From IMG/VR virus record IMGVR_UViG_3300042401_002002: a stretch of 64,000 nucleotides of DNA. The stretch is one strand, 5' to 3'. The stretch's first letter is position 1. The number at the start of each line of letters is the position of its first letter. Below, in pieces: positions 15,089 through 59,624 of this stretch. Below the pieces are notes generated by a model. The model saw only the letters and a list, made by a program, of their open reading frames with translations. It did not search any database and was not told where the DNA came from. The stretch comes from a virus. Its lineage: Duplodnaviria > Heunggongvirae > Uroviricota > Caudoviricetes. The translations under genes were made by a program, and so were the position numbers.

Positions 15089-18000
15089 TTATAACTTATT
15101 ATTGTTGTTTAAAAACTCATTTAGTAATTGAACTGTTTCATTTGAATTTTGACTTAAACTTGTTTTGTCTTCAACTTCTTTAAGTAACTGAACCAATTCG
15201 TTATTTGTTTTATTTGCTCTATACAAATATTTTTCTTTTAACTGAAATGGTTCTTGTTCACCTTGTGGTGCAGCTCCACCTGCTGGGTTATTACCTGCAT
15301 CCATTGGTCCACCCATAGCATCGGCTCCTGGTTCAGCAGGTTGTTCACCGTTAACTTGTGCTGGGTCTAATGATGAAGTAATAATACCTCTTTTAATGTA
15401 TTCCTCTAAATCATTGAAAATACCTGATTTTTTAAGAATTAAACCAGCATTTTTAATTTCATCACCAACAACATTTTCAATCATTTGTTGTTTAATATCA
15501 TCAAGTATTTCATCAGCTGATAAACCAAAAATAAGTTTTTTAGCATTTGTTTCTGACATAGGTTTTAAACCTGTTTCATTTGATGTCGTTAATTTAACAT
15601 ATAAATCAACTTTTTGTGTAAATGCTTCAATTTTAAGTATTTCTGATTGTGTAGATGGGTTATTTAAAGTTAATTTATAATCTCTAATATCATCATCACT
15701 GTAACCTAATAAGAATAAATGTATTAATGCAATTTTGTTTAATTCTTGAATCATTGCATTTTGTATTCTCATTACTTTTCTAGAAAATACAATATCTGTT
15801 TGAGCATTATTGTCACCACCACCTTCTCCAGAACCTGAGAAATTAAGTCTGTTTTTAGGTACACCTAAACCTGTAAATAAGTTATCTCTTAAGTATTCAA
15901 TATCTGCAATTTTATCTAAATTATCAGCACCTTCTAAAATATCAATTGGTGAAGGGTCACCAGCGTTTTTAACTGCAACAAATATATCTTCAACACCACT
16001 TGCTGGACTATATTTGTAATTAATTTGTCCTGTTGCAGGGTCAACTATTTGTGATTTTTTAAAATTTGAAATAGTTTGACGCATAAACATTGGGATATCT
16101 GCTGGGTCCATATTACCAGTAGGAACTTTAACTACTTTAACCCTTGCAGCATTAGTTGCTCTATATACTAATTGAGCATCTTCACTCATTTTTAACATTC
16201 TGTAATACATTCTAACAGGTGCCAGTACAGATGTACCATAAGGTAACGTATTTTCATCACCTAATAACCTAAAATGTGCCACTTGGAAGTTAGTATATTC
16301 TTGTCCACCTAATTGCCAAATAAATTTAGTTGTTGGTTTTCCATTTATAATTTTTTCTTGTCTTTCTATTTCAGATGTAGGTAATTGTTTAACATTTACA
16401 ACACCTTTATCTGCTTCAGTCATTACAAATAAAAAATTATCACCAAACTTGCAGTTTGACAAAAATACACCAGAAGTTCTTGAGTATGAACCGTTTATGT
16501 CTTTACCTAGTACTGGAAAATTATGTCTATCATGTTCACCGTTAGGACCAACAGCTTCTAAACAGTAAACATCCGAAGTTTCTTCTAATTTAACAACGGA
16601 AACTACTTTATGGTTTACAACCTTAGTTTTACCTAAAAAAATTGCTTTAGCTCTTATATAATCTTTATCTAATATTAAAGTTGGTTTAATAGATAAAACA
16701 TAATCAAAATAATTTAACTCAGTTTTTCTCTTTAAAACATTTGTTAGTGTTGCATGGTTTATAGATTTAATAATATCTTTTCTTAAAGTATAAGTTTCTT
16801 TAAAAAGATTTATAAATTCAGTATCAATTTTTAATAATTGAGCTAGTTTATTTATACCAACATAATTTTCGTTACTTGCTATAATATTAGTTATATAGTT
16901 TAAACAACTATCAGATATTTCTATTGTCATACCTTTTTTTGTTTTCGCAACAAATTCTTCATTAGACCAATTCTCTAACATTTTTTTTGTACGGATTTCA
17001 TTATGTTCACTGTGTAAATCACTATTATTATATTCATTAAAATATTTTGGATAAATACCTGTCATTTCTTTTGACATTCTTTGTCTACGAGCATCAGATG
17101 TTAGATATTTGTGGATACCTTCTAAACGTTTTTTTGTAATTTCAGGTGAATGTAATACTTGTTTACAAAGGTCTGTGTGTATTTTAAAATGTTCACTGTT
17201 AGTTAATCTTTGTAAATTATGTGGGTGATTATTTAGTTTATTAAAATCAATGTGATGTGTGTCAAAACGTTCATTGACAGTTTTTTCATATTCCAAATCA
17301 CGCACACATTCATGTGCTACCATACGATGAGTAAACTTATATTTACCAGTACTTGGGTTAAATACTTTTTCATAACCACCTATTTGGTCTTGTTTTTTAT
17401 TACTTTTTTTGGTGTAATAAGGCATTAACGATTGACCAGGTGTTAATTCATCAGCTCTTTTAAATGAACCGTTTCTTAACATGTATTCATGGTCTGGTGT
17501 TGTATCTATATATGTACCATCATCTAACGTTACACGATATAATTCACTATTTTTTCTAGTTAAGTCACACCAAACAATTTTACTAGGTACAATAGCGTGT
17601 GTCTTATCCTGAATAGAATAAGACCAGATTTCTTCACCTAATTTAATTCTATCTGATAATTCTTTTATTGTACACTCAGTACCATCTAATAATGGTATCA
17701 TTGAATTCTCTCTAATTGGAGTGTTTCTCACCCAGAAAGGTAGATTAGTATTAATATCTAAAATCTCATAAAATAAGTATTCTAAATCTTCTTTTAGTCT
17801 ATTATTGTTAGAATAAATGTTTAACATTTGACCTCTATCACCTATCGTTGTGGCTTCTTCAGCTAAAACATTTAAAGCTTGAGCTATGATAGGGTATGAT
17901 TCCATCATTTTATATTCAACATAAGCAGGTAATCTTAAAGCATTGGCTTGAACTGCTTGCATATCATTTTGTTGGATGATATGTGAATGTTGTTTATAAA

Positions 18001-18172
18001 GATATTGCGTTTGTTGGTATTCTAATTTTTTATCTTCTAATTCTTCTTTAGAAGATGCTGTAATAAGTTCTTTTTTTTCTATTGGTGTAACAAATTGATT
18101 ATTATCATGTTTATTAACCTTTCCTGTTAATCTATTATAGGCTGATTCCCATAAACTAGTTTTTTCTGCCAT
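15089..18172 (-). CDS. portal protein (T4 gp20-like) with intein
   Basis: P.IAQAL...AEEAT, WVRNT/CKFGDNF, HFRL..D...PYG.SVL, EDA..VYR and DIEYLRD.LF..L.VP motifs; about 605 aa after splicing. Confidence 0.88.
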   Translation of the reverse strand: MAEKTSLWESAYNRLTGKVNKHDNNQFVTPIEKKELITASSKEELEDKKLEYQQTQYLYKQHSHIIQQNDMQAVQANALRLPAYVEYKMMESYPIIAQALNVLAEEATTIGDRGQMLNIYSNNNRLKEDLEYLFYEILDINTNLPFWVRNTPIRENSMIPLLDGTECTIKELSDRIKLGEEIWSYSIQDKTHAIVPSKIVWCDLTRKNSELYRVTLDDGTYIDTTPDHEYMLRNGSFKRADELTPGQSLMPYYTKKSNKKQDQIGGYEKVFNPSTGKYKFTHRMVAHECVRDLEYEKTVNERFDTHHIDFNKLNNHPHNLQRLTNSEHFKIHTDLCKQVLHSPEITKKRLEGIHKYLTSDARRQRMSKEMTGIYPKYFNEYNNSDLHSEHNEIRTKKMLENWSNEEFVAKTKKGMTIEISDSCLNYITNIIASNENYVGINKLAQLLKIDTEFINLFKETYTLRKDIIKSINHATLTNVLKRKTELNYFDYVLSIKPTLILDKDYIRAKAIFLGKTKVVNHKVVSVVKLEETSDVYCLEAVGPNGEHDRHNFPVLGKDINGSYSRTSGVFLSNCKFGDNFLFVMTEADKGVVNVKQLPTSEIERQEKIINGKPTTKFIWQLGGQEYTNFQVAHFRLLGDENTLPYGTSVLAPVRMYYRMLKMSEDAQLVYRATNAARVKVVKVPTGNMDPADIPMFMRQTISNFKKSQIVDPATGQINYKYSPASGVEDIFVAVKNAGDPSPIDILEGADNLDKIADIEYLRDNLFTGLGVPKNRLNFSGSGEGGGDNNAQTDIVFSRKVMRIQNAMIQELNKIALIHLFLLGYSDDDIRDYKLTLNNPSTQSEILKIEAFTQKVDLYVKLTTSNETGLKPMSETNAKKLIFGLSADEILDDIKQQMIENVVGDEIKNAGLILKKSGIFNDLEEYIKRGIITSSLDPAQVNGEQPAEPGADAMGGPMDAGNNPAGGAAPQGEQEPFQLKEKYLYRANKTNNELVQLLKEVEDKTSLSQNSNETVQLLNEFLNNNNKL
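16454..17719 (-). mobile_element. 422 aa intein with HNH homing endonuclease, atypical Pro1
   Basis: Block A PIRENSMIPLLDG, block B TTPDH, HNH DTHHIDFNKLNN, block F DVYCLEA, terminal LSN followed by Cys+1. Confidence 0.85.
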
Positions 18173-21482: not shown

Positions 21483-22897
21483 ATGTCCTAAAAACTATAC
21501 AAATTATTAAAATCTATACAATTAATTTTATAAAAGGATTGGATTTGTTGACACATATTTCAACTCGAATACGTCCCTTACTTTTATTGGGTTGAACAAT
21601 AATCCACTATCAATTATCTTACTAACGTAAGAATCAAAGACTACTTTTCTCATTATGTTAACTGCTCCGTTAACATCTGCGTTTATCAACCCTTTGGCTG
21701 ATTGAAACAAACCACGTTGAACTCTTTTGTTTACTTTAAAGAACCCATTCGGTATCGCTTCGCCATACTTATACAATTTCTCTAATATCAAACTATCTGT
21801 TTTTGAGGTATAACTTTCTTCTGTTTCAACTACTTTTATACCCACCATTTCACACTTATATTTAATCTTATTTAAGAGATTCAAATAAGAAATGTAACAA
21901 AACTTTTGGTTATTAATTCTACCAATATCAATGGAGTCCTTCCATTGTTTGTTGTAACCAACTATTAAATTACCTATCTTATTATCTACCAAATAATCTA
22001 CAATGTACCTACTTACCTTGTGATATATATCATTCAATGTGTTCTCTCTATCTACATATAAATCTTTGATTTGTTCTGTTAGACCTTTTATTTTTTGTTT
22101 ATCTTTAATTGAAGTTAATCTAGCTAATTCTTTGTTAAAGAACTGATTGTAACTTTTAATCTGATTACCGCTAAGTAAAACAGGGTTAGTTAATGAACTA
22201 ACCAAAGTTACTAAGTTATTAACACCTAAGTCAATTGAAGCGTGTTCATCGTAGTTAACATCTTTATTTTCAATATGTTTTTCATAAACAATTTCAACTT
22301 TGATGTAATTCTTTTTAGGAATCAACCTAACTTGATTAAAGTTGATTATATCTTTTTTGTATTTATCAAACTGTGGTACAGCTATTTTTAATGTTTTAGA
22401 TAAATGTATGTATCCATCATGTTTAATAATACATGATTGATTTGGATAAATTAAGTTAGATAAACTATTTTTACGTTTAAAATTAGGTAATTTAGGTTTA
22501 CCTTTATATTTAGTCGGGTTCTTTGACCAATCTCTAATAGCAGCAATGTAAGATTTAACATCTTGTTCAAGAACCTTTAATGTTTGTTGAGCAACTTGTG
22601 CTTTAAGTAATCTATAATTAACAGTACCTTCTAAATTAGTTTTACATTTCATTAACACATCTAACTGTTTATAAAACAAAAACTTACCTTCGTTATTAAG
22701 GTTTGTTTTAACTTCATAAAGAGCCTGATTGTAAAGGTTGTTAGCAACTTTACAAAGTTCAGTTAGATGAGTAGCTGTATTAATGTCAAATGTGTAAACT
22801 AATCTCATTTATTGTGTTATTAAATGTTATTTATTATAAATAGTAAAAACTATTAAATAATTTGATATATAGAATAAATTCTATATATTTGTGTGTT
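21483..22897 (-). mobile_element. tnpB-only insertion element, copy 1 (1415 bp)
   Basis: Ends defined by homology to copy 2; left-end hairpin TATAGAA-TTTA-TTCTATA; removal restores a 42 aa microgene. Confidence 0.8.
21528..22808 (-). CDS. tnpB: RNA-guided endonuclease TnpB
   Basis: NLYNQAL, SIDLGVNN (RuvC-I), EESYTSK, R..RGLF, INADVNGA (RuvC-III). Confidence 0.92.
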   Translation of the reverse strand: MRLVYTFDINTATHLTELCKVANNLYNQALYEVKTNLNNEGKFLFYKQLDVLMKCKTNLEGTVNYRLLKAQVAQQTLKVLEQDVKSYIAAIRDWSKNPTKYKGKPKLPNFKRKNSLSNLIYPNQSCIIKHDGYIHLSKTLKIAVPQFDKYKKDIINFNQVRLIPKKNYIKVEIVYEKHIENKDVNYDEHASIDLGVNNLVTLVSSLTNPVLLSGNQIKSYNQFFNKELARLTSIKDKQKIKGLTEQIKDLYVDRENTLNDIYHKVSRYIVDYLVDNKIGNLIVGYNKQWKDSIDIGRINNQKFCYISYLNLLNKIKYKCEMVGIKVVETEESYTSKTDSLILEKLYKYGEAIPNGFFKVNKRVQRGLFQSAKGLINADVNGAVNIMRKVVFDSYVSKIIDSGLLFNPIKVRDVFELKYVSTNPILL

Positions 22898-26994: not shown

Positions 26995-27707
26995 TTATCT
27001 ATTAAAAATATTTAGTTTGTTTAAACTATTTCGTGAACTATTCAATAAATCGCTTAGACCGTAGGTTAATGCTGATGATTTATTATTAAATTTAAAATTT
27101 TTAGGATATATTACTATTGAAAGTTTCATCTTCTAAATATTGTTAATCGGTTTTTATTTATTTCTAAAAAATAATCTGACGATTGATAGTCACTTTTTAA
27201 TTTAACTAATAATTGGTTCCATTTATCTACAGTAAAGTTTTTAAATTTATAACCTGTGATTGTTTTTTCTATTTTAAGTTTCATCTTCCGATAATATATA
27301 AATGGTTTAACATAGGATATATGTGATAACTATCACCACGATAATCTACTGAAATCTCAAGTCCGTAAGACTGATATATTAAAGAATTTATCTTTAATGT
27401 ACTGTTATCTTGTTTTTTAAGTTTCATCTTAATAAAATTATTATTTTATTTTTCTCAAATTCGGTTAATTCTATATTATTATACAATCTGAACATTCTAC
27501 AATAAACAAAATTAGTATTATTGAAGAACATAGGTTGTTTTGGGTTAGTTTTGAAAATGAGAAGTTTCATCTTTTACCTAATATTAATAATCTATTAACT
27601 GTATGTATTAAATGTAAATCTACACGTTGTTTTTTATAAAAAAGAATAATTGTTTCATTTATAGTATGAAACTTAATATCTACATTATGGTTGATTAAAA
27701 GTTTCAT
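26995..27707 (-). repeat. MKL microgene array 4a (5 ORFs)
   Basis: ORFs 26995-27129, 27126-27284, 27281-27427, 27424-27570, 27567-27707. Confidence 0.88.
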
Positions 27708-28222
27708 AATCTATCCAATTCAAAATAAACATAATCAAATTCATTCTTTTCATCAGCAATACCTTTACCGACAACTGTTTGTTTAAATTTATCATTGAAT
27801 AATAAATTTAGGTCAATTTCACTATCAAATTCTTCAACAACTGTTTCAATTAATGTTAAGTAAACTTTGGTACATAAAGGAATAGTTTGTTTATATATTT
27901 CAGCACCACCTATAAGAAATATTTCTTTTGTTGGGTAATATACTTCTGAAATATCAATCGCTTTAGCTATTGTATCTACAATAAACAAATTATCATGTTT
28001 TAATTGTAAATGTTCTAAGTTAGATACATTTCTAGTGATAACAATATTAATTCTGTTAGGTAGTGGTTTTGAACCTAATGATTCAAATGTCTTTCTCCCC
28101 ATAATTACAACATTATCTGTTGTTAATTTTTTGAACCTTTGTAGGTCATTTGATTGTTTGAATAACAATTGGTTGTTATTGCCAATTGCACCGTTTTTGG
28201 AGATTGCTAGAATAAGTTTCAT
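27704..28222 (-). CDS. folA: dihydrofolate reductase
   Basis: IG.NN.L, DL.RFK.LT, MGRKTFES, PLPNR.NIV, IGGAEIY. Confidence 0.96.
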   Translation of the reverse strand: MKLILAISKNGAIGNNNQLLFKQSNDLQRFKKLTTDNVVIMGRKTFESLGSKPLPNRINIVITRNVSNLEHLQLKHDNLFIVDTIAKAIDISEVYYPTKEIFLIGGAEIYKQTIPLCTKVYLTLIETVVEEFDSEIDLNLLFNDKFKQTVVGKGIADEKNEFDYVYFELDRL

Positions 28223-28523
28223 CTTGTAAATATTATTAAAATATTGGGTTTTTTCCTTAAATTTTTAATACAGTTGCAAATTTTTATTTCGATATGAGTA
28301 GAATTCATTATAGGGAATAATTCTACCATATACCATTTATAAATATTAGTTATTTTATTATCAAATAATTGAACTTTTAATTTCATCTTGCGAAGATAAA
28401 TAATTGATTTCTTTTAAAGACCGTTACATTTTCTCTGTTTCCAATATTTAAATTTTTATACCAAATTTCTTTATTATTTGAAATAATTACTACCCAATTA
28501 AAACTTGTTATATCTAATTTCAT
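28219..28523 (-). repeat. MKL microgene array 4b (2 ORFs)
   Basis: 28219-28386 MKLKVQLF...NILIIFTR; 28383-28523 MKLDITSF...NQLFIFAR. Confidence 0.85.
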
Positions 28524-39088: not shown

Positions 39089-39358
39089 TTACAATGAAGT
39101 TGCGGATTTAATTTCAATAAACCAATCAGGATTATTTTCAACATCATCTTTATAGAAATAATAAGATTTATATTTATCTTCGCGATATTCTTCATCTGTG
39201 ATTGAATGAAAATAATCACCTCTGATAGTTTGTTTAAATATCCTACCAGCTGGACATTTTATTAAATCTTTAATTATTTTAAACGTTCTCATGTTATAAC
39301 CGACTTTTAAATTTTGAATGATTTTTAGCAATTCTTTTAGAAGTTTCTTCGATTGCAT
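39089..39358 (-). CDS. hypothetical protein (likely start MRTFK at 39292)
   Basis: ORF with C-terminal VENNPDWFIE. Confidence 0.5.
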   Translation of the reverse strand: MQSKKLLKELLKIIQNLKVGYNMRTFKIIKDLIKCPAGRIFKQTIRGDYFHSITDEEYREDKYKSYYFYKDDVENNPDWFIEIKSATSL

Positions 39359-39599
39359 CTTTTATTTCTTTAGTAATCGGTTTACTATTTTGAAATAAAT
39401 GTTTTGTTATTTTAGCGTTGTTAGGTACATATAATTTATAACCAACATAAAACCAAATTATTATTTCTGTTATTCCAGTTAAACCTCGTAAGGTTGTGTC
39501 TGTATGCCTAATATTGGTAGCTAAATAACATAAATATTCTGATAGTGCAACTATCAAAGGATACAGTAGCATCCAAAGTACGAAGGGTAGGTTTTTCAT
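39294..39599 (-). CDS. membrane protein
   Basis: Two hydrophobic segments. Confidence 0.55.
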   Translation of the reverse strand: MKNLPFVLWMLLYPLIVALSEYLCYLATNIRHTDTTLRGLTGITEIIIWFYVGYKLYVPNNAKITKHLFQNSKPITKEIKDAIEETSKRIAKNHSKFKSRL

Positions 39600-39730
39600 C
39601 TTTTATAAATTAATATATTGTTCGTCCAATTTTCAGAATTAATCCAATTTTCATTAGTCTTAAGAAATTTAGTATATAACTTAGTGTTGTAAAGGTATAT
39701 ACCATCAGTATTGTTTATGTCTAGTTTCAT
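39596..39730 (-). CDS. MKL microprotein (singleton)
   Basis: MKLDINNTDG...NWINSENWTNNILIYKR, ATGA-coupled on both sides. Confidence 0.8.
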   Translation of the reverse strand: MKLDINNTDGIYLYNTKLYTKFLKTNENWINSENWTNNILIYKR

Positions 39731-43983: not shown

Positions 43984-44944
43984 TTTCTTGGAAATATTAT
44001 TAGTGCGTTGTGGTTGGATTTAGTAGTAAAGTTTTTTATACGTAACATTTCGATTTTATAATCTAGACCACTTAATAAACCTGTTATGTATAATTTCATC
44101 TTTTTGTTATTATTAATCGGTTGTAGTGAATTTCGGGTATATATCTTTCAGTTTTATTATTAATTCTATGAAAAACTCCACTATTATTGAATAGTACAAA
44201 GTTTGAGTTAGTTATTTTTAATTTCATCTTCTTTCAAAAATTAATAACATGTTATGATTTCTTTTGTTTTGTAAAGTGAATTCAGATGTTATCTCACGTT
44301 TCCAGTTAAACGTTTTCAATAAAGCAGATATATCTAATTTCATCTTTTAAATTTTTTATATAATTTATATAAAATATAACTTTTTAGTGAAAATCCAAAT
44401 ATAACTAAAATTATTATAAAATAACTATTATCTATTTGGAATATTAGATAGATATCTAATAAGCAAGCCACTAATAAGAATATTGATAACATAATACCTA
44501 GTTTCTTAAAGAAATTGAATTCTAATCTTTTGATTGTTTCTATTGTCATCTTGTGTAAATTGTTATGTAATTAATAAAATTATTTATATTTTTACCTGGT
44601 TTATGACTACCTTTCATAAAATTATAATCAGGACTTGTTAAGAAAAAGCTATTGGGTTTACTTATATTTAATTTCATCTTTTGTAAATTATTATTATCTG
44701 TCAAGAATTAATAAACGATTATAATTTATTTTTAAATCACGTCCAGAAGTTATCATGTAATAAGGTGTTATATCACCTAAATAAGGTTTCCAAATTTTTA
44801 ATTTCATCTTTTAAATATTACCATTGCGTTACTCCATCTTTTTATCTTAATTTTACTTTTTTGTTTTCCAACTAAAACATGATAATAAAGATTATCACTA
44901 ACAAAATTAACTTTATACGTACTATTATCTATTTCAAGTTTCAT
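43980..44944 (-). repeat. MKL microgene array 8 (6 ORFs around a 69 aa membrane ORF)
   Basis: ORFs 43980-44099, 44096-44227, 44224-44343, 44546-44677, 44694-44807, 44804-44944. Confidence 0.88.
44340..44549 (-). CDS. small two-helix membrane protein
   Basis: Two hydrophobic segments; ATGA-coupled inside the array. Confidence 0.5.
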   Translation of the reverse strand: MTIETIKRLEFNFFKKLGIMLSIFLLVACLLDIYLIFQIDNSYFIIILVIFGFSLKSYILYKLYKKFKR

Positions 44945-45045: not shown

Positions 45046-47430
45046 ATGGCTGATAACTTAAATGCAACCAATAAAAGATTAGCTGAAATAAGAGATTTAC
45101 AAGCTGAATTAAATAGATATGTAGGTGTTTATATGGAGAATATTGATTCTTCTAATAAGATTCGTGAAGAAGAAAAAAGAATTATAAAAGAAACATCTAA
45201 AGAACAAGAGAAACAAAATGAAATTGAAAAGGAAAAACAAAAAAGATTAACTAGAACAAAAGGTATTTTAAAATCCATATATGATGAAACAGTAAAACTT
45301 ACTGGTGGTTTTAGTGGTGTATGGAAGTATTTGAATGATGCTGATATTAGTGGTAAGAGTTTGGTAAGGTCTATGGGTCTTAACTCAACTATGACTGCCA
45401 CTATGAATAATAATTTGAGGCAATCAGCTGTTTATGCTGCTCAAATGGGTGTTTCATTTCAAGATTTAGCTAAAGCACAAGCATCTTTTGCTGAATCTAC
45501 AGGCACTATGGCTTTGTTGAATGTAGAGACTCTTGAAAGAATGTCTGAAGCTGCTGGTGCTACTGGTCTTGGTGTTGAACAACAAGCTAAATTTCTAGGT
45601 CAATTACAAAATGTTGGTATAGGTGTTGGTAAGGCTAGTACTGTTGTTGAGAAAACAATGAAGTCTAGTCAAGCTATGGGTTTAAATATGTCTACATCAC
45701 TTAAATTGATGACCGAAAATATGTCAATGATGAACAAATTTAGGTTTGAAAATGGTGTTGAAGGTTTTCAGAAAATGACTCAATTTGCTCAACAACAAAA
45801 AATGAGTATTGAAGGTCTTTCTTCAGCAATGGATAAATTTCAATCACTAGAAGGTTCTATTGAAGCTACAGCTAGGTTGTATACTATGGGTGGTGAGTTT
45901 GCTAAAAATGATGCGTTTAGTTTAGGTTTTAATGCAAGAAATAACCCAGAAGTTTTTGCGCAACAAATAAATGATATGATGAAAGGACTTGCTGTTCAAG
46001 ATTCTAAAGGTATATTTAAAGTTAGTGCGGTTGATATGGACCGTTTAAGGGTTGTATCTGAAATAACAGGTGATAGCGTTGAAAAATTAAGAGAACAAGC
46101 TGTTCAATTATCTAAACAAGAATTTGTTGGTAAGAGTGTATTTGGTAATATTTCTAAAGATGATAGAAATTTGATTGCTAATATAATGGAGCAAGATAAG
46201 AGTGGTACTTTTACAGTTAAAATTGATAATAAAAACTTTAAACTTAATGAATTAGGTGAGTCGCAACTTAGTTTGTTAAGAAAACAAACAGAATCTATAG
46301 CTGAACAAGCAAAAGTAACACAAGATTGGAATAGTGCTTTAGATAATTCAATTAATTCTTTAAAAGCTAATTTATTACCTGTACTTAATGTAATAAATGG
46401 TTATTTAGGTGCTGTAAATAATATAGGTACTAATTGGGTAGCTAATATAGGTAAGGTTATTGCGTTAGCTGGACCATTAATCGCTGGAAAAGCTATTATG
46501 ACAGGTGCTAATTCTTTTATTGGTGGTAAGTTTGATGATATGTTTGATTTAAGTAAAAAAAAGAAATCAACATCATCTTTTTCTTCTGCTGGTGGTTCAA
46601 GTGTTAGTGATTTGGGTAAACTTAAGGATATACCTGATGGACCTGCATTGCAAAGTAGAGCTGCTGGAATTGCAGCAATAGGTGTTGCTGCTTTAGGTAT
46701 TGGTGCAGGTATAGGTGTTGCTGCTTATGGTGCTTCATTATTAGCAGATTCTATTTCTAAATTAAATGTTGAACAAATGAAAACTTTAGCATTTACTATG
46801 GGTGCAATCGGATTGACAATGGGTGGTATTTTAGTGGCTGGTGTTATTGCGCTAGGTTCAGCAAGTGAGTTTGCTGCGCCTGGTTTATTAGCACTTGGTG
46901 GTGCTGCACTTATGGTTGGTGCAGGTATAGGTGTTGCTGCTTATGGAATCGGTACTATGGTTGATAGTTTGGGTAAGGTAGGTAATATTGGTGCTAACAT
47001 TACTTCATTAGGTAAAGGGTTATCTAGTTTAGTTTCTTTAAATACACTTGCAGGTATAACCACGTTAGGTTCTTTAGGGAATACATTAGTTGGTTCTGCA
47101 TCAGGTTTTAGTAGTGCAGGTAATATGTTTAAAAATGTTGGTGAGTTTATGAGTAAACCTGCTAAAAATTTAATTGAACTACAAAATACTATTAAAGCTT
47201 TAAAAGATTTTGATGGTAATAGTATGTTGTCACAGTCAATAAAAGACCTTAATAATGTTATCGCTAAAGGTATAGAAATTAAATTACCAAATAATGGTGT
47301 ACTTAATGTAACTACCAATGTTGATTTGTATATTGATAGAGAGAAACTTGCTACTAGTTTGCAGATTGGTCAAAGAAGTTTTGCTGAATTATTTAAATCT
47401 CAGAAAGGTGTTGCTGCTGTTAAAAGTTAA
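45046..47430 (+). CDS. tail tape measure protein
   Basis: 794 aa helical Ala/Gly-rich protein with repeated GAGIGVAAYG hydrophobic segments; CTATTTA upstream. Confidence 0.75.
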   Translation: MADNLNATNKRLAEIRDLQAELNRYVGVYMENIDSSNKIREEEKRIIKETSKEQEKQNEIEKEKQKRLTRTKGILKSIYDETVKLTGGFSGVWKYLNDADISGKSLVRSMGLNSTMTATMNNNLRQSAVYAAQMGVSFQDLAKAQASFAESTGTMALLNVETLERMSEAAGATGLGVEQQAKFLGQLQNVGIGVGKASTVVEKTMKSSQAMGLNMSTSLKLMTENMSMMNKFRFENGVEGFQKMTQFAQQQKMSIEGLSSAMDKFQSLEGSIEATARLYTMGGEFAKNDAFSLGFNARNNPEVFAQQINDMMKGLAVQDSKGIFKVSAVDMDRLRVVSEITGDSVEKLREQAVQLSKQEFVGKSVFGNISKDDRNLIANIMEQDKSGTFTVKIDNKNFKLNELGESQLSLLRKQTESIAEQAKVTQDWNSALDNSINSLKANLLPVLNVINGYLGAVNNIGTNWVANIGKVIALAGPLIAGKAIMTGANSFIGGKFDDMFDLSKKKKSTSSFSSAGGSSVSDLGKLKDIPDGPALQSRAAGIAAIGVAALGIGAGIGVAAYGASLLADSISKLNVEQMKTLAFTMGAIGLTMGGILVAGVIALGSASEFAAPGLLALGGAALMVGAGIGVAAYGIGTMVDSLGKVGNIGANITSLGKGLSSLVSLNTLAGITTLGSLGNTLVGSASGFSSAGNMFKNVGEFMSKPAKNLIELQNTIKALKDFDGNSMLSQSIKDLNNVIAKGIEIKLPNNGVLNVTTNVDLYIDREKLATSLQIGQRSFAELFKSQKGVAAVKS

Positions 47431-47436
47431 TATTTA

Positions 47437-47469
47437 AAAAAACCTCTCTTATTAATTTAGGAGAGGTTT
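47437..47469. terminator. conserved terminator hairpin
   Basis: After tape measure, convergent genes. Confidence 0.7.
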
Positions 47470-47475
47470 ATTTTG

Positions 47476-47760
47476 TTAAACATTTATCGGTTCTTTTTGT
47501 TTTATGTTATTCATTTTTTCTTTAATAATTAAACAATCAGTTAAAGCATCATTATAATTATCATATACTTTATCAGTATTAAATAACCTATTTAAACCCC
47601 ATGTTTGATATAGTCTTAACCAACCAGGACCTGTTTTAACTATTTCTATCTGAAATATAGATTCATTATCTATAACAAATTTGTTAATTCTGAATATAAA
47701 TTCAGGTTCTTCTATTTTCTTTTTAAAAAGAAGATTTTTAAATGTTTTTATTAGTTTCAT
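47476..47760 (-). CDS. hypothetical protein
   Basis: 94 aa; begins MKLI but lacks the microprotein C-terminal motif. Confidence 0.5.
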   Translation of the reverse strand: MKLIKTFKNLLFKKKIEEPEFIFRINKFVIDNESIFQIEIVKTGPGWLRLYQTWGLNRLFNTDKVYDNYNDALTDCLIIKEKMNNIKQKEPINV

Positions 47761-47827
47761 ATTTATAATTTGGTTAGTAGTTTGTAATAATACATTTTTT
47801 TTATCATTAAAACAAATAATATTAGTT

Positions 47828-48971
47828 TTATTTTGAATAAATTTTAAGATAATTTAATCCATAATCAGTTAACTCTTCGTTAATATTTATGTTGTTTATG
47901 TAAAAATATACTGCTGAATATTTAAACCTAGGTGCTAGTTCAGTTAGGTTATCTATTTTTAGTTTCATCTTGTATATATTGTTATGTAATTAAACCACCT
48001 TTCCCATAATTTATTAATAGTTCTTTCGCCTATAAGTACCTCAAAATCACTTGATTCAGTAAATAACATAGTTTCAAAATTTGTTTCTATTATTAGTTTC
48101 ATCTTGTATAAATTTGAATGTAATTAGTCCAAACAGAAATATCTTTGATTATAAACCTACCCATTAATAATTCATAATCAGCTGAATAAATAAAAATTAT
48201 ATCTGTATCTGTTTGTTGTTTAAGTTTCATCTTTTGTAAATTGATAAATTATCTAAACCGAAAACACCTTTATCTAAACTGTTGATTATTTTGAATAATC
48301 TAGATTTTTTAAAAGGTATATCAGAATATTTTGGTCTGTTTAGTATTTTTAGTTTCATCTCCAATAAACGTTTATGTAATTAGTCCATATTTCCCCTGGT
48401 TCTATTTCACGATGATTAATAAGTAAATCATAATCACTTGATTGGGAAAATCTTAAACTCTGATATTTTTCTATTCTAAGTTTCATCTTTTGTAGATTTG
48501 TATGTAATTAACCCAACTATAAATATCATTTATCTTGCCTTTGCTAGTTAATATTTCGTAATCAACTGAATCAACGAATTTGTTATCTATATCGGTTTGT
48601 TGTTTAAGTTTCATCTCACAAATATACAAATTTTATTGCACCAAAATTTAACTAAATAATGGTCTCCATTATCTGATAATAAGAATCCTTGCATACCTGA
48701 ATGATTAAAATCACCCATATCGTTGTATTGATTAACTTTCATATTAATTTATATTTAAAAAGATAGGTTGTAAATTATATTACAGAACTTAATTGCGTCT
48801 GTTTTTATTTACATTTTTATAATTACAACCTATCTTTTTTTATCTTTTGTAAATGTTTATATTATTAGTCCAATTTTCAACAGGACTTATAATACGTTCA
48901 CCTATTAACAAAATATAATCTAGTGAATTTATAAATTCATTATCCTCTTGGTAAATTACATCTAATTTCAT
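47828..48971 (-). repeat. MKL microgene array 9 (8 ORFs, 128 bp period)
   Basis: Starts 47968, 48102, 48230, 48358, 48486, 48614, 48742, 48971; shared internal S.D[YF]..L...W.N.I.[IV]Y.R motif in five units. Confidence 0.92.
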
Positions 48972-48973
48972 AA

Positions 48974-49711
48974 CTATTCACCAAATATAATAATTTGATT
49001 TAATTTAAGCAATAAATTATCAATATTTTTATCATGTTTATATTGGTTAGATAATCTATTGATAACATTTTCAGGTTCAGGATGAAATAAGAAACTATTC
49101 TTTGGTTTAGTTGCATAAAATTCATACATCTGTTCAAAATCTAAATTATTAACATAAAACTTAGAGTTCTTTAGATTTTTAAACTTAGATAATATTTCTA
49201 ATGCTTCATTAATATTATCTAAAGGTGACCTTTGTTCAAATGCATAAACACTGTCTAAGTTAACGTTATTCAAATTAACTATTTCTGAGTCAACTGTAAT
49301 ATGTGTAATATCTTTATGTTGTTTCGTATTAAACTCAATTGATTTAAATCTAAACAAATATAATACATTAAATTTATCAGACAAATCAATATCAATATCT
49401 AATACTGTTAAATTACTTGCTTCCTCTTCAGTAAATAAATTTAAAACAGAACCATTTTCAGTTAAATTAAAACCTTCAGTGCTATTACTTAGTAGTTGAG
49501 ATATTTTAATTCTATCAGGTATAGTTGAAATATCTAAAGGTTTTTTAATTTCTTTAGTTATATTTAAACTATCTAAATCAATTTTTTCATCTGAAATAAT
49601 AACTTCAGCACCACCTTCTTTAAGTTTGTCTATTAACTTATCGAATTTTTCTGGTGATAATTCGATTGAACCTTTTGGTAGGGGTGAAACTTGTTTTTCT
49701 TCTTGAGGCAT
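48974..49711 (-). CDS. hypothetical protein
   Basis: 245 aa ORF. Confidence 0.55.
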   Translation of the reverse strand: MPQEEKQVSPLPKGSIELSPEKFDKLIDKLKEGGAEVIISDEKIDLDSLNITKEIKKPLDISTIPDRIKISQLLSNSTEGFNLTENGSVLNLFTEEEASNLTVLDIDIDLSDKFNVLYLFRFKSIEFNTKQHKDITHITVDSEIVNLNNVNLDSVYAFEQRSPLDNINEALEILSKFKNLKNSKFYVNNLDFEQMYEFYATKPKNSFLFHPEPENVINRLSNQYKHDKNIDNLLLKLNQIIIFGE

Positions 49712-49844
49712 AGTTATTTTGTTTTACAATGAGAATACAATATTAATAATTAAAAGTTAAAGAACAAAATAATTGTTAATATTTATGTTCTTTAACGTGA
49801 ATTGTTAAGAAAGGTTACGTAGTTATTGTAAATATTTCAAGTTT

Positions 49845-51128
49845 TTAATACAAAACTTTAAACGTATGTCCGCAAGGAGTTGGTTGGTTTAGTTTTATTG
49901 CTGTTGAGATTAATTTACCCATCCACTGAGCTTTAACATCATCTTTTTTGATTCGTTCAGCAATTTTAATTATTTCTAACTCTTCAAAGATAAATTCACC
50001 ATCTTTATAGACTTCATAACCTGTGATATAACCTTCTTTTTTAACAAACGTTGGTTCGTAGTTCCAGAAATAACCAAATGCTAATCTTTTATTTTGGATA
50101 GCACGAGAGATTGTTGATGTACTATTATCTTTTTGGTTTAATGTTCTGCAAGCTTCAGCTACTGTTTTGAAGTTACCTATTAGTTCACCTTTTCTATCAA
50201 ACTGATAAATAATGTTATGTTGATGTTTGTAAACTTTATTTTCTTCAATCTTTTCAAAATAATTGTTTACGTCTTCAATAGTTGAATCAATTTTAAAGAA
50301 ATGATATTTACCACCTTTAAATGGAAAATTAGGTTTCCAATGAATATTAGTATTAAACTGTTCATTAAATTCTTTTAATGTATCAAAATCACCAATTTTT
50401 TCACGTTCAGTGTTATACACAGATATTTTGTCATGATTCTGTTTATATTCATCACCGTGATATTCTAATCGAAAACCATCTTTAAATATTTTACCACTTT
50501 TTAAATGATGTGCTACAGATGCTGGTGTATATGTTATTCCTGTAAGGGTTAAATATTCAGTTACAAGATTTATATTTTTAAATGTTTGGATAAAATCATC
50601 ATTTTTATATAAATCAACTTTTGTTGACCTGTCTTTTGGTGGTTCGTGAAATATACCGTCATAAGACCACATGAAACCTTTGTAAGATTCGTGACATCTT
50701 TCAGCCTTATTGAATTGTCCCATTTTTCTACGACCTGTGTAATGAAGATGTGCTTCAACAGCATCATCCCAAATTTTAATTAAATTGCCTTCTAGGTCAA
50801 ATTGGTGAACTGGGATTTTTACATGAACTTTTGGATATTTAGGGTGGGAATAACATACTGTTTTAGCCATATTATAATAACCATAAATATCCATGTATTC
50901 TTGTTCATCTTTATTTCTGTTATCATGATTAGTTTCTTTTAAAATTTTAAATTCAAAATTTTCGCCACCATGTTTATTCCAACCGTTTTGTAATTTACTA
51001 CAAACATGTGTACCTTTTTTAAGCAATCTTTTGTGTTCCGAAAATCTTCTTTCAGTTTCAAAAGCTGAACCAATATACATGTTACCTGTTATTTTATTTA
51101 CTATCGCGTAAATATAAGCTTTCCTCAT
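49845..51128 (-). CDS. GIY-YIG homing endonuclease with NUMOD1-like repeats
   Basis: YIY.I.N......YIGS...R..EH...L; repeats VHQFDLEG.LI and IYQFDRKGELI. Confidence 0.88.
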   Translation of the reverse strand: MRKAYIYAIVNKITGNMYIGSAFETERRFSEHKRLLKKGTHVCSKLQNGWNKHGGENFEFKILKETNHDNRNKDEQEYMDIYGYYNMAKTVCYSHPKYPKVHVKIPVHQFDLEGNLIKIWDDAVEAHLHYTGRRKMGQFNKAERCHESYKGFMWSYDGIFHEPPKDRSTKVDLYKNDDFIQTFKNINLVTEYLTLTGITYTPASVAHHLKSGKIFKDGFRLEYHGDEYKQNHDKISVYNTEREKIGDFDTLKEFNEQFNTNIHWKPNFPFKGGKYHFFKIDSTIEDVNNYFEKIEENKVYKHQHNIIYQFDRKGELIGNFKTVAEACRTLNQKDNSTSTISRAIQNKRLAFGYFWNYEPTFVKKEGYITGYEVYKDGEFIFEELEIIKIAERIKKDDVKAQWMGKLISTAIKLNQPTPCGHTFKVLY

Positions 51129-58235: not shown

Positions 58236-59624
58236 AATTTATACAGTTAATTTCATAAAAGGTTTGAATCTGTTGATACATACTTCAACTCGAATATATC
58301 CCTTACTTTTATTGGGTTGAACAATAACCCACTATCAATTATCTTACTAACGTAAGAATCAAAGACTACTTTTCTCATGATGTTAACCGCTCCGTTAACA
58401 TCTGCGTTTATTAAACCCTTAGCTGATTGAAATAACCCTCGTTGAACTCTTTTATTAACTTTAAAGAACCCGTTTGGTATCGCTTCACCATACTTATACA
58501 ATTTCTCTAATATTAGAGAATCTGTTTTTGAGGTATAACTTTCTTCCGTTTCAGTTACTTTTATACCTACCATTTCACACTTATATTTAATCTTATTTAA
58601 CAGATTTAAATAAGATATGTAACAGAATTTTTGGTTATTAATTCTACCAATATCAATGGAGTCCTTCCATTGTTTGTTGTAACCAACTATTAAATTACCT
58701 ATCTTATTATCTACTAAATAATCTACAATGTATCTACTTATTTTATGATATAAATCATTCAATGTGTTCTCTCTGTCTACATATAAATTCTTAATTTGTT
58801 CAGTTAAACCCTTAGTACCTTGTCTAACTTTAATTGAAGTTAATCTAGCTAGTTCTTTGTTAAAGAACTGATTGTAACTTTTAATTTGATTACCGCTAAG
58901 TAAAACAGGATTTGTAAATGAACTAACCAAGGTCACTAAGTTATTAACACCTAAGTCAATTGAAGCGTGTTCATCGTAGTTAACATCTTTGTTTTCAATA
59001 TGTTTTTCATAAATAATTTCAACTTTGATGTAATTTTTTTTAGATATCAACCTAACTTGATTAAAGTTTTTAATTAATTCTTTGTATTTATCAAACTGTG
59101 GTATATATATTTTTAATGTTTTAGACAAGTGAATATAACCGTCATCTTTAATAATACAAGCTTGGTTTGTATAAATCAAGTTAGATAAACAATTTTTACC
59201 TTTGAAGTTAGGTAATTTAGGTTTACCTTTATACTTAGTTGGGTTATTTGACCAATCTTTAACGGCAGCAATGTAAGATTTAACATCTTGTTCAAGAACC
59301 TTTAGTGTCTGTTGAGCAACTTGAGCTTTAAGTAATTTATAATTAACAGCACCTTCAAGATTAGTTTTACATTTCATTAACACATCTAAGTCTTTATAAA
59401 ACAAAAACTTACCTTCGTTATTAAGGTTTGTTTTAACTTCATAAAGAGCTTGGTTATAAAGGTTGTTAGCAACTTTACAAAGCTCAGTTAGATGAGTGGA
59501 TGTGTTAATGTCAAATGTGTAAACTAATTGCATTGATTATGTTATTAAATGTTATTTATTATAAATAGTAAAAATTATTAAAATAATTTGATATTATAGA
59601 ATAAATTCTATAATTTTAGATACC
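58208..59624 (-). mobile_element. tnpB-only insertion element, copy 2 (1417 bp)
   Basis: Ends homologous to copy 1; removal restores the reading frame of the flanking gene. Confidence 0.8.
58253..59533 (-). CDS. tnpB: RNA-guided endonuclease TnpB
   Basis: Same motifs as 21528..22808; roughly 33 of 426 residues differ by hand count. Confidence 0.92.
   Translation of the reverse strand: MQLVYTFDINTSTHLTELCKVANNLYNQALYEVKTNLNNEGKFLFYKDLDVLMKCKTNLEGAVNYKLLKAQVAQQTLKVLEQDVKSYIAAVKDWSNNPTKYKGKPKLPNFKGKNCLSNLIYTNQACIIKDDGYIHLSKTLKIYIPQFDKYKELIKNFNQVRLISKKNYIKVEIIYEKHIENKDVNYDEHASIDLGVNNLVTLVSSFTNPVLLSGNQIKSYNQFFNKELARLTSIKVRQGTKGLTEQIKNLYVDRENTLNDLYHKISRYIVDYLVDNKIGNLIVGYNKQWKDSIDIGRINNQKFCYISYLNLLNKIKYKCEMVGIKVTETEESYTSKTDSLILEKLYKYGEAIPNGFFKVNKRVQRGLFQSAKGLINADVNGAVNIMRKVVFDSYVSKIIDSGLLFNPIKVRDIFELKYVSTDSNLL

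Follow-up and report, generated by a model that had tools for sequence, protein, structure and literature searches.

A microgene array in a T4-like lake phage: apparently old tandem duplicates, separately retained, with exchange of whole units

Eight back-to-back microgenes on the minus strand of a phage sequence (47828-48971), with products of 43-46 amino acids, suggest how a large family of small phage proteins evolves: the duplications would be old, each copy would be kept under selection, and present change would be the exchange of whole units at the coding joint. (Coordinates are those of the window, which is the whole 64-kb stretch of DNA that was analysed.) We give this account of old duplication, retained paralogues, and unit-wise exchange at joints a probability of about 75%. 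The region forms an eight-gene chain belonging to a large microgene family, carried by a T4-like phage that is known from lake metagenomes. Genes in the window encode a T4-type portal, a family-B DNA polymerase, and an Mre11/Rad50-like fusion, and its G+C content is 26%. Microgenes of this family take up a sizeable part of the genome, which is very large and belongs to an uncultured phage (the longest contig with these microproteins in a protein collection is 308,574 nt). Because the family is large and has no relatives in any library, it marks a real gap in knowledge of phage small proteins. Internal homology within the family is clearest in this array, from which the time scale and mode of the family's evolution can therefore be read.

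A pattern search of the window for an MKLxI start and an NxIxI[YF]xR end found 35 ORFs of 38-55 amino acids, all on the minus strand. A profile built from these ORFs extended the family to at least 49 ORFs at E<=0.01, again all on the minus strand, and none of the 69 small plus-strand ORFs matched it. The consensus has conserved internal positions at F13, S16, Y19, and L22. Each protein of ~43 residues has a fixed frame, with MKLxI at the start, F-x2-S-x2-Y-x2-L inside, and NxIxI[YF]xR at the end. All eight units of the array score 40-61 bits against the family profile and share the traits of the family (35-60 amino acids, the MKLxI and NxIxI[YF]xR ends, the minus strand, and chaining by ATGA). 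Microgenes are also chained by ATGA onto ordinary longer genes (28219-28386 onto 27704-28222, and 39596-39730 onto 39294-39599). Judged by eye, the 172-aa gene with its start at 28222 may be a dihydrofolate reductase. The microproteins have no credible match in Pfam, PHROGs, PADLOC, or NCBIfam, and the family matches no known family or fold. Literature searches found no published description of such arrays.

The array begins with the unit at 48840-48971 (43 amino acids), which starts 2 nt past the stop of a 245-aa gene and ends in AGA-TAA, so it has no coupled successor. It is followed by five more units of 43 amino acids (48611-48742, 48483-48614, 48355-48486, 48227-48358, and 48099-48230), by one of 45 (47965-48102), and by a last unit of 46 with a divergent core, which ends in K-TAA (47828-47968). 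The original prediction described an exact 128-nt spacing of the ATG starts at 48102, 48230, 48358, 48486, 48614, and 48742, and this is correct. The period is 44 codons including the stop, less a 4-nt ATGA overlap of stop and start, and it arises simply because six neighbours, every one 43 codons long, each overlap the next by ATGA. The 245-aa gene (48974-49711, minus strand) lies directly upstream of the array and is a conserved neighbour of subfamily arrays; it has no match in Pfam, PHROG, PADLOC, or NCBIfam. Downstream lies a 94-aa gene (47476-47760, minus strand), which is not a family member and has a weak match to phrog_20589.

We then compared the cores of the units. Five of them (starts 48102, 48230, 48486, 48614, and 48971) share the pattern S-x-D-Y-x-L-L...W-x-N-Y-I-x-I-Y-x-R, as had been noted from the sequence. 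With the conserved first 5 and last 8 residues taken off beforehand, the ten core pairs had z = 5.1-8.3, and none of 500 shuffles reached these scores. The similarity thus withstands the comparison with shuffled controls that the original prediction had named as able to refute it. These five units form a subfamily, and they are true paralogues. A further member of 43 amino acids lies outside the array (44546-44677, minus strand) and pairs with a protein from another assembly, P0035 (tree support 98/92). The interleaved cores, three in number, had been described as unrelated; this holds for two. We made a core-only profile from 27 family units located elsewhere than the array, and it did not match 47828-47968 or 48611-48742; the latter is a family member (MKVNQ...ICIFVR) whose core has no detectable kinship to the subfamily. 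The third unit, 48227-48358, is outside the subfamily, but its core fits the family-wide pattern F-x2-S-x2-[YF]-x2-[LI] and scores 12.4 bits against the core-only profile (0 of 200 shuffles).

The subfamily was originally proposed to be young, with recent duplication followed by fast, frame-preserving divergence. Duplication did occur, and frame and length were preserved, but neither "recent" nor "fast" survives. We have several pieces of evidence on the age of the copies.

First, even the closest pair (48230 and 48614, which is the nearest paralogue of the former) is just 74% identical in nucleotides and 60% in amino acids, with pS of 0.53 and dS of ~0.9. The remaining subfamily pairs are 55-59% identical in nucleotides, and dS between paralogues is ~0.9-1.2. 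Among the four subfamily members of 43 codons, pS is uniform (0.53 in the termini, 0.56 in the motif, and 0.55 in the remaining core), which implies that no part was recently copied or homogenised by gene conversion. In the same four, the motif has a pN of 0.06, as compared to 0.24 for the termini and 0.57 for the remaining core. At the variable core positions divergence has gone on at about the synonymous rate; with pN/pS of ~1 and both near saturation, these positions are compatible with neutrality or with past positive selection.

Second, seven of the eight units have an orthologue in other assemblies that is nearer (61-88% amino acid identity) than any paralogue in the array. The closest outside relatives are P0009 for the unit starting at 48102 (84%), P0007 for 48230 (81%), P0044 for 48358 (86%), P0005 and P0008 for 48486 (88% and 79%), P0021 for 48742 (84%), P0006 and P0022 for 48971 (70% and 67%), and P0039 for 47968 (61%). 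For the unit starting at 48614, we found no outside relative closer than its paralogue at 48230 (60%).

Third, the copies in the window do not form a clade. We built a maximum-likelihood tree of 35 subfamily proteins from 45 alignment columns, which left the deep forks undecided. It has four changes of label between the window and elsewhere, as compared to a mean of 3.6 for shuffled labels. The supported groups pair units of the window with outside proteins: 48230 with P0007, 48486 with P0005 and P0008 (support 95/96), 48102 with P0009, and 48971 with P0022. Since the orthologues pair in this way and the window copies do not cluster, the duplications are older than the split of these phages. 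Unit 48614 joins the pair of 48230 and P0007 with support of 97/90, which places even the latest duplication earlier than the split from the strain that carries P0007.

Fourth, the locus itself is old. A metagenome scan gave a single match, a marine contig of 1802 nt (L001), which encodes a 242-aa orthologue of the 245-aa protein (46% identity, E = 1e-66). This gene is followed by a hairpin homologous to one in our array, by four complete subfamily units, and by a further unit of which the contig end leaves only the start. Because the same locus lies beside a protein of 46% identity, we consider both the subfamily and its position by the 245-aa gene to be old. Overall, the comparisons show that the subfamily copies are old duplicates, each separately conserved, with no recent or special mutation process.

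Relatives of the microproteins seem to be confined to this phage group. We searched 5.8 billion proteins with a profile and, exhaustively, 1.84 billion representatives with an HMM. The relatives were all small proteins of 40-48 amino acids, and the HMM search found just 39 representatives at E<=0.001. IMG/VR scans with the 245-aa protein, the subfamily, the product of a plus-strand 794-aa gene, and a two-sequence alignment found no relatives, nor did scans of genome contigs. Megablast of 7 kb against phage records gave no match. Among 50,697 phage records there was no close relative of the phage, and its polymerase is only ~26% identical to those of Salinibacter and Nostoc phages.

The hairpin lies at 48757-48839 (minus strand), between the first and second units. 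Its outer stem is 22 bp long and encloses a conserved interior, in which a smaller hairpin forms, and a T run follows the stem. Its predicted energy is -24.6 kcal/mol (z = -6.35; 0 of 200 shuffles), it occurs once in the window, and an Rfam search of 47300-49900 gave no match. The homologous hairpin in L001 (1095-1172 of that contig) has z = -5.3. The interior (TTATAAAA..GTAAATAAAAACAGAC..AATT..GTTCTGT) is nearly identical between the two, and the outer stems differ yet stay complementary. In L001 the hairpin stands before the first unit, whereas in the window and in a related estuary strain (see below) it stands after the first unit. The T run suggests that it is a candidate terminator or attenuator, and it may be a mobile or regulatory element. 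A separate hairpin terminator (47436-47473, no strand assigned) lies between the converging minus-strand block and the plus-strand gene of 794 amino acids.

How does the array change between strains? The sequencing runs that contain this stretch are lake, freshwater, and estuary metagenomes. We compared assembled contigs and left out runs X1-X3, which may be the source of the window. Contigs from three lake samples, X4, X5 (2017), and X6, each span part of the array and are identical to it there; the samples date from 2017 and 2024. Estuary run X7 has a contig of 2835 nt from a related strain, and its array is arranged differently. It begins with the counterpart of unit 48971, the hairpin, and the counterpart of 48742, and then has a new unit with 103 unmatched bases, followed by the counterparts of 48230, 48486, and 48358. 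After these come another new unit (112 unmatched bases), the counterparts of 48102 and 47968, 549 extra bases, and the 94-aa gene. The two new units have no counterpart at 80% identity. The extra bases (at 47777-47794 of the window) amount to about four unit lengths and lie between the last unit and the 94-aa gene. The internal breakpoints (48605, 48242, 48095/48105, 48220, and 48478) are all 3-12 nt from an ATGA joint; a caveat is that if whole units differ, the aligner will place breakpoints at the conserved joints anyway.

Where units can be aligned, the X7 and window copies differ modestly. The aligned units are 3.5-10% different (80 of 1086 nt, or 7.4%) and the flanking genes are 3.7-9% different (165 of 3291 nt, or 5.0%), so units and neighbours change at about the same rate, and the units are not fast. 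The differences are 58% transitions, and the per-base rates show no excess at A or T. Among the differences listed, three units have 7 synonymous and 13 nonsynonymous codon changes and the adjacent, unrelated 94-aa gene has 4 and 8; either way omega is roughly 0.4, a rough value that uses 40 of the 216 differences and assumes ~4.5 nonsynonymous sites per synonymous site. The X7 counterpart of unit 48230 has exactly the five replacements that are found in P0007. We think it probable, as part of the account given above, that variation between strains is mostly the replacement, reordering, and addition of whole units at joints, together with ordinary point substitutions.

Just upstream, the polymerase gene and the 245-aa gene are separated by a GIY-YIG/NUMOD1 homing-endonuclease-like gene (49845-51128). 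In X7, depth over 49761-50795 drops to ~0-1.7, and the stretches 49041-50601 and 49409-50287 are skipped by joints. The endonuclease gene is probably absent from the estuary strain or different in it.

These observations fit together as follows. Old tandem duplications would have made the five-member subfamily, most likely by unequal crossing-over between the ~25-35 conserved bases around the ATGA joints. Crossing-over at joints adds or removes whole units, which would explain why the frame and the period are kept. After duplication, scaffold positions were probably under purifying selection while the other core positions drifted to saturation. Each paralogue would then have persisted as a separate gene that has orthologues in related phages. 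Units would likewise be lost, replaced, and reordered by homologous recombination at the short coding joints, followed by ordinary divergence. We propose recombination at the ATGA joints as the mechanism from where the breakpoints lie.

A different way to read the same exchange is that the units are selfish mini-cassettes, which spread by recombination at the joints and are tolerated by the phage without being useful to it. Whole units do come, go, and move between strains, at least 49 of them occupy 64 kb, a high copy number, and there are mobile genes nearby (a GIY-YIG endonuclease and two TnpB-like genes). But orthologues of individual units persist, with omega below 1 (by the rough estimate above), and the subfamily occupies this locus also in the phage of L001, where the neighbouring protein is just 46% identical. 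Furthermore, the units encode no enzyme that could move them. We consider selfish spread unlikely.

The units are protein-coding. When scored with the codon usage of the phage's long genes, the annotated frame was the best frame for all eight cores, by +16 to +29 bits, and the other five frames all scored lower. Conserved residues are written with different codons: L3 is CTT, TTA, CTA, or TTG, S17 is TCA, AGT, or TCC, and Y44 is TAT or TAC (5:5). The basic last residue (R or K) is retained even in the seven units that close with TAA and are not coupled to a following unit. All units are free of internal stop codons, and orthologues preserve the lengths. This bears on the idea that the ORFs are incidental, and that what matters is instead a DNA or RNA signal repeated at each joint (for re-initiation, or a transcription element) with spacers in between. 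Conserved DNA is indeed concentrated around ATGA (repeat families D1 and D2), AGA-TGA is almost invariant, and AATTACATA is conserved in the subfamily at the DNA level. However, a joint signal would not account for phage codon usage in a single frame of the cores, for the varied codons at conserved residues, or for the low pN of the internal motif (0.06, as compared to pS of 0.56). Nor would it account for intact lengths, or for motifs that persist in the first and last units, which have no neighbouring unit on one side. We therefore regard incidental ORFs as very unlikely, and treat the units as genes.

We also rejected two unusual modes of decoding. A frameshift that fuses successive units is countered by the next frame, which often has TAA just upstream of the ATG, and by the presence of an ATG and a stop in every unit. 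Stop codons do not seem to be recoded: the long genes are intact under table 11, with 26 TAA, 7 TGA, and 3 TAG stops. The window has no tRNA genes. A search for longer or fused forms of the microproteins found none, which is weak evidence.

Short, arrayed units with a fixed N-terminal motif and a variable remainder could also bring to mind RiPP-like precursor peptides, or internal proteins that are packaged in the capsid by a common targeting signal, as in T4. Either identity seems highly improbable here. T4-type internal proteins have an N-terminal capsid-targeting sequence that ends in an L/I-x-E cleavage site; in the units, residue 6 is not a conserved Glu but varies (I, T, N, D, E, V, F, Q, and others). 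Seven of the eight units have no Cys, there is no core rich in Ser, Thr, or Cys, and no neighbouring gene has a domain of a modifying enzyme or protease. Conservation at both ends and inside fits a small fold better than a leader peptide.

We give almost no credence to the weakest alternative, which is that a DGR or other targeted hypermutation rewrites the cores: they are highly variable between fixed ends, but the Pfam scan of the window's 20 largest ORFs found no reverse-transcriptase (RVT) domain, there is no near-identical pair of template and variable repeats (the best pair reaches 74% identity and is mismatched at all three codon positions), adenine is at 18-44% of the paralogue mismatches while A content is 40-45%, the strain differences have no A bias, the 2017 and 2024 lake contigs are identical across the array (at the level of contigs), and each core has a conserved orthologue. 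A DGR-type process, for which the original prediction had proposed an adenine-biased spectrum as a test, is thus rejected for the 64-kb window. Without active diversification, attention shifts to the function of the proteins (their binding partners) and to recombination at very short coding repeats.

What might the proteins do? AlphaFold2, run with a 70-sequence family alignment, gave a model for unit 48840-48971 with a mean pLDDT of 89.2 and pTM of 0.57. In this model, DSSP assigns helix to residues 13-15 and 17-22 and no strands, so that a central helix has extended ends. The model for 48227-48358 is weak (pLDDT of 69.6); its helices fall within residues 11-33, and its ends have no regular structure. 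Foldseek against the PDB and BFVD and a wide search with VIA-align gave no match, although for 43 residues such a blank is uninformative. There was no sequence-profile match in the PDB and no usable match in the ESM Atlas. In the monomer model the two ends, which are conserved and hydrophobic, are not paired with each other; this would be compatible with pairing between chains or with a partner.

One possible reading, which we hold tentatively, is that the products are small soluble proteins that are made with other genes of the replication region and that bind a host or phage partner through the variable core, while the ends form a common docking or oligomerisation surface. A more speculative idea is that the family is a natural cassette library of mini binders. 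The ends might dock to a common partner or to each other, the variable core of 30 residues might neutralise a host factor such as a defence protein, and the joint might double as a recombination site. If so, the coding joint (the last 8 codons, ATGA, and the first 5 codons) would let phages swap, duplicate, and reorder binders with the frame unbroken, and the subfamily at 47.8-49.0 kb would hold binders of related specificity next to one another. No other part of the family has yet yielded a confident structure prediction, so work on expression and structure could sensibly start with the subfamily.

We also looked for promoters. Sequences like sigma-70 promoters are not enriched in the window (24, versus 22.4 expected). 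The pattern TTTG-N19-20-TA(G/A)(G/A)TTTG heads several microgene arrays and other genes on the minus strand of the window, with boxes that begin at 110, 24884, 28740, 33026, 34904, 40207, and 44976. This is the form of the housekeeping promoter in Bacteroidota, which suggests a Bacteroidota host. The shorter TAnnTTTG is mildly enriched (149, versus 114 +/- 10 in shuffles). There is no box of the TTTG/TAnnTTTG type directly upstream of the array at 47.8-49.0 kb.

Elsewhere in the window, the portal gene (gp20 family, 15089-18172) is interrupted by an intein splicing domain, and by general appearance of the sequence there are ribonucleotide reductase genes. The window has two GIY-YIG genes. It also has two genes of 426 amino acids that are OrfB_IS605/Cas12f-like (TnpB-type), with near-identical N-termini (21528-22808, assigned by Pfam, and 58253-59533, judged by its similar sequence and equal length). 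Both contain the tandem repeat GTTAACAGCTCC.

Finally, we compared the array to known systems. DGRs, like the array, have a fixed frame around a variable protein segment. They also have a reverse transcriptase, a template/variable repeat pair, and adenine-specific changes; no reverse transcriptase was found among the 20 largest ORFs of the window, the array has neither of the other two, and its sequences are stable across samples. RiPP precursors have a conserved leader, a core rich in Cys, Ser, or Thr, and an adjacent modifying enzyme; in the array both ends are conserved, seven of the eight units lack Cys, and no enzyme domain is encoded next to them.

Tandem multigene families are closer. 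Such families expand by unequal crossing-over, and like them the array is head-to-tail in a single orientation, gains and loses members in register, and has paralogues with common scaffold residues. The differences are that the array's unit is extremely small (~128 nt), its translational chaining is obligatory, and there are very many units per genome.

Another parallel is the modular shuffling of ORFans in the hyperplastic regions of T4-type phages, at promoter-early stem-loops, or PeSLs (Arbiol et al. 2010, PMC2839356; Comeau et al. 2014, PMC4122927). PeSLs are intergenic cassettes of a sigma-70 promoter and a stem-loop, which flank unrelated ORFans (PMC2839356; PMC4122927). In both cases the phage is of the T4 type, blocks of small genes of unknown function lie between core genes, and close strains differ by the insertion, deletion, or replacement of whole genes at a short repeat. 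The array even has one stem-loop element. In contrast to PeSLs, the array's repeat lies within coding sequence, covering the final 8 and initial 5 codons of a single family, and successive units overlap by ATGA instead of being separated by intergenic DNA. Also, the genes that are shuffled are paralogues, sigma-70-like sites are not enriched, and the hairpin is single. Recombination at the joints, as we propose it, would be analogous to the shuffling at PeSLs.
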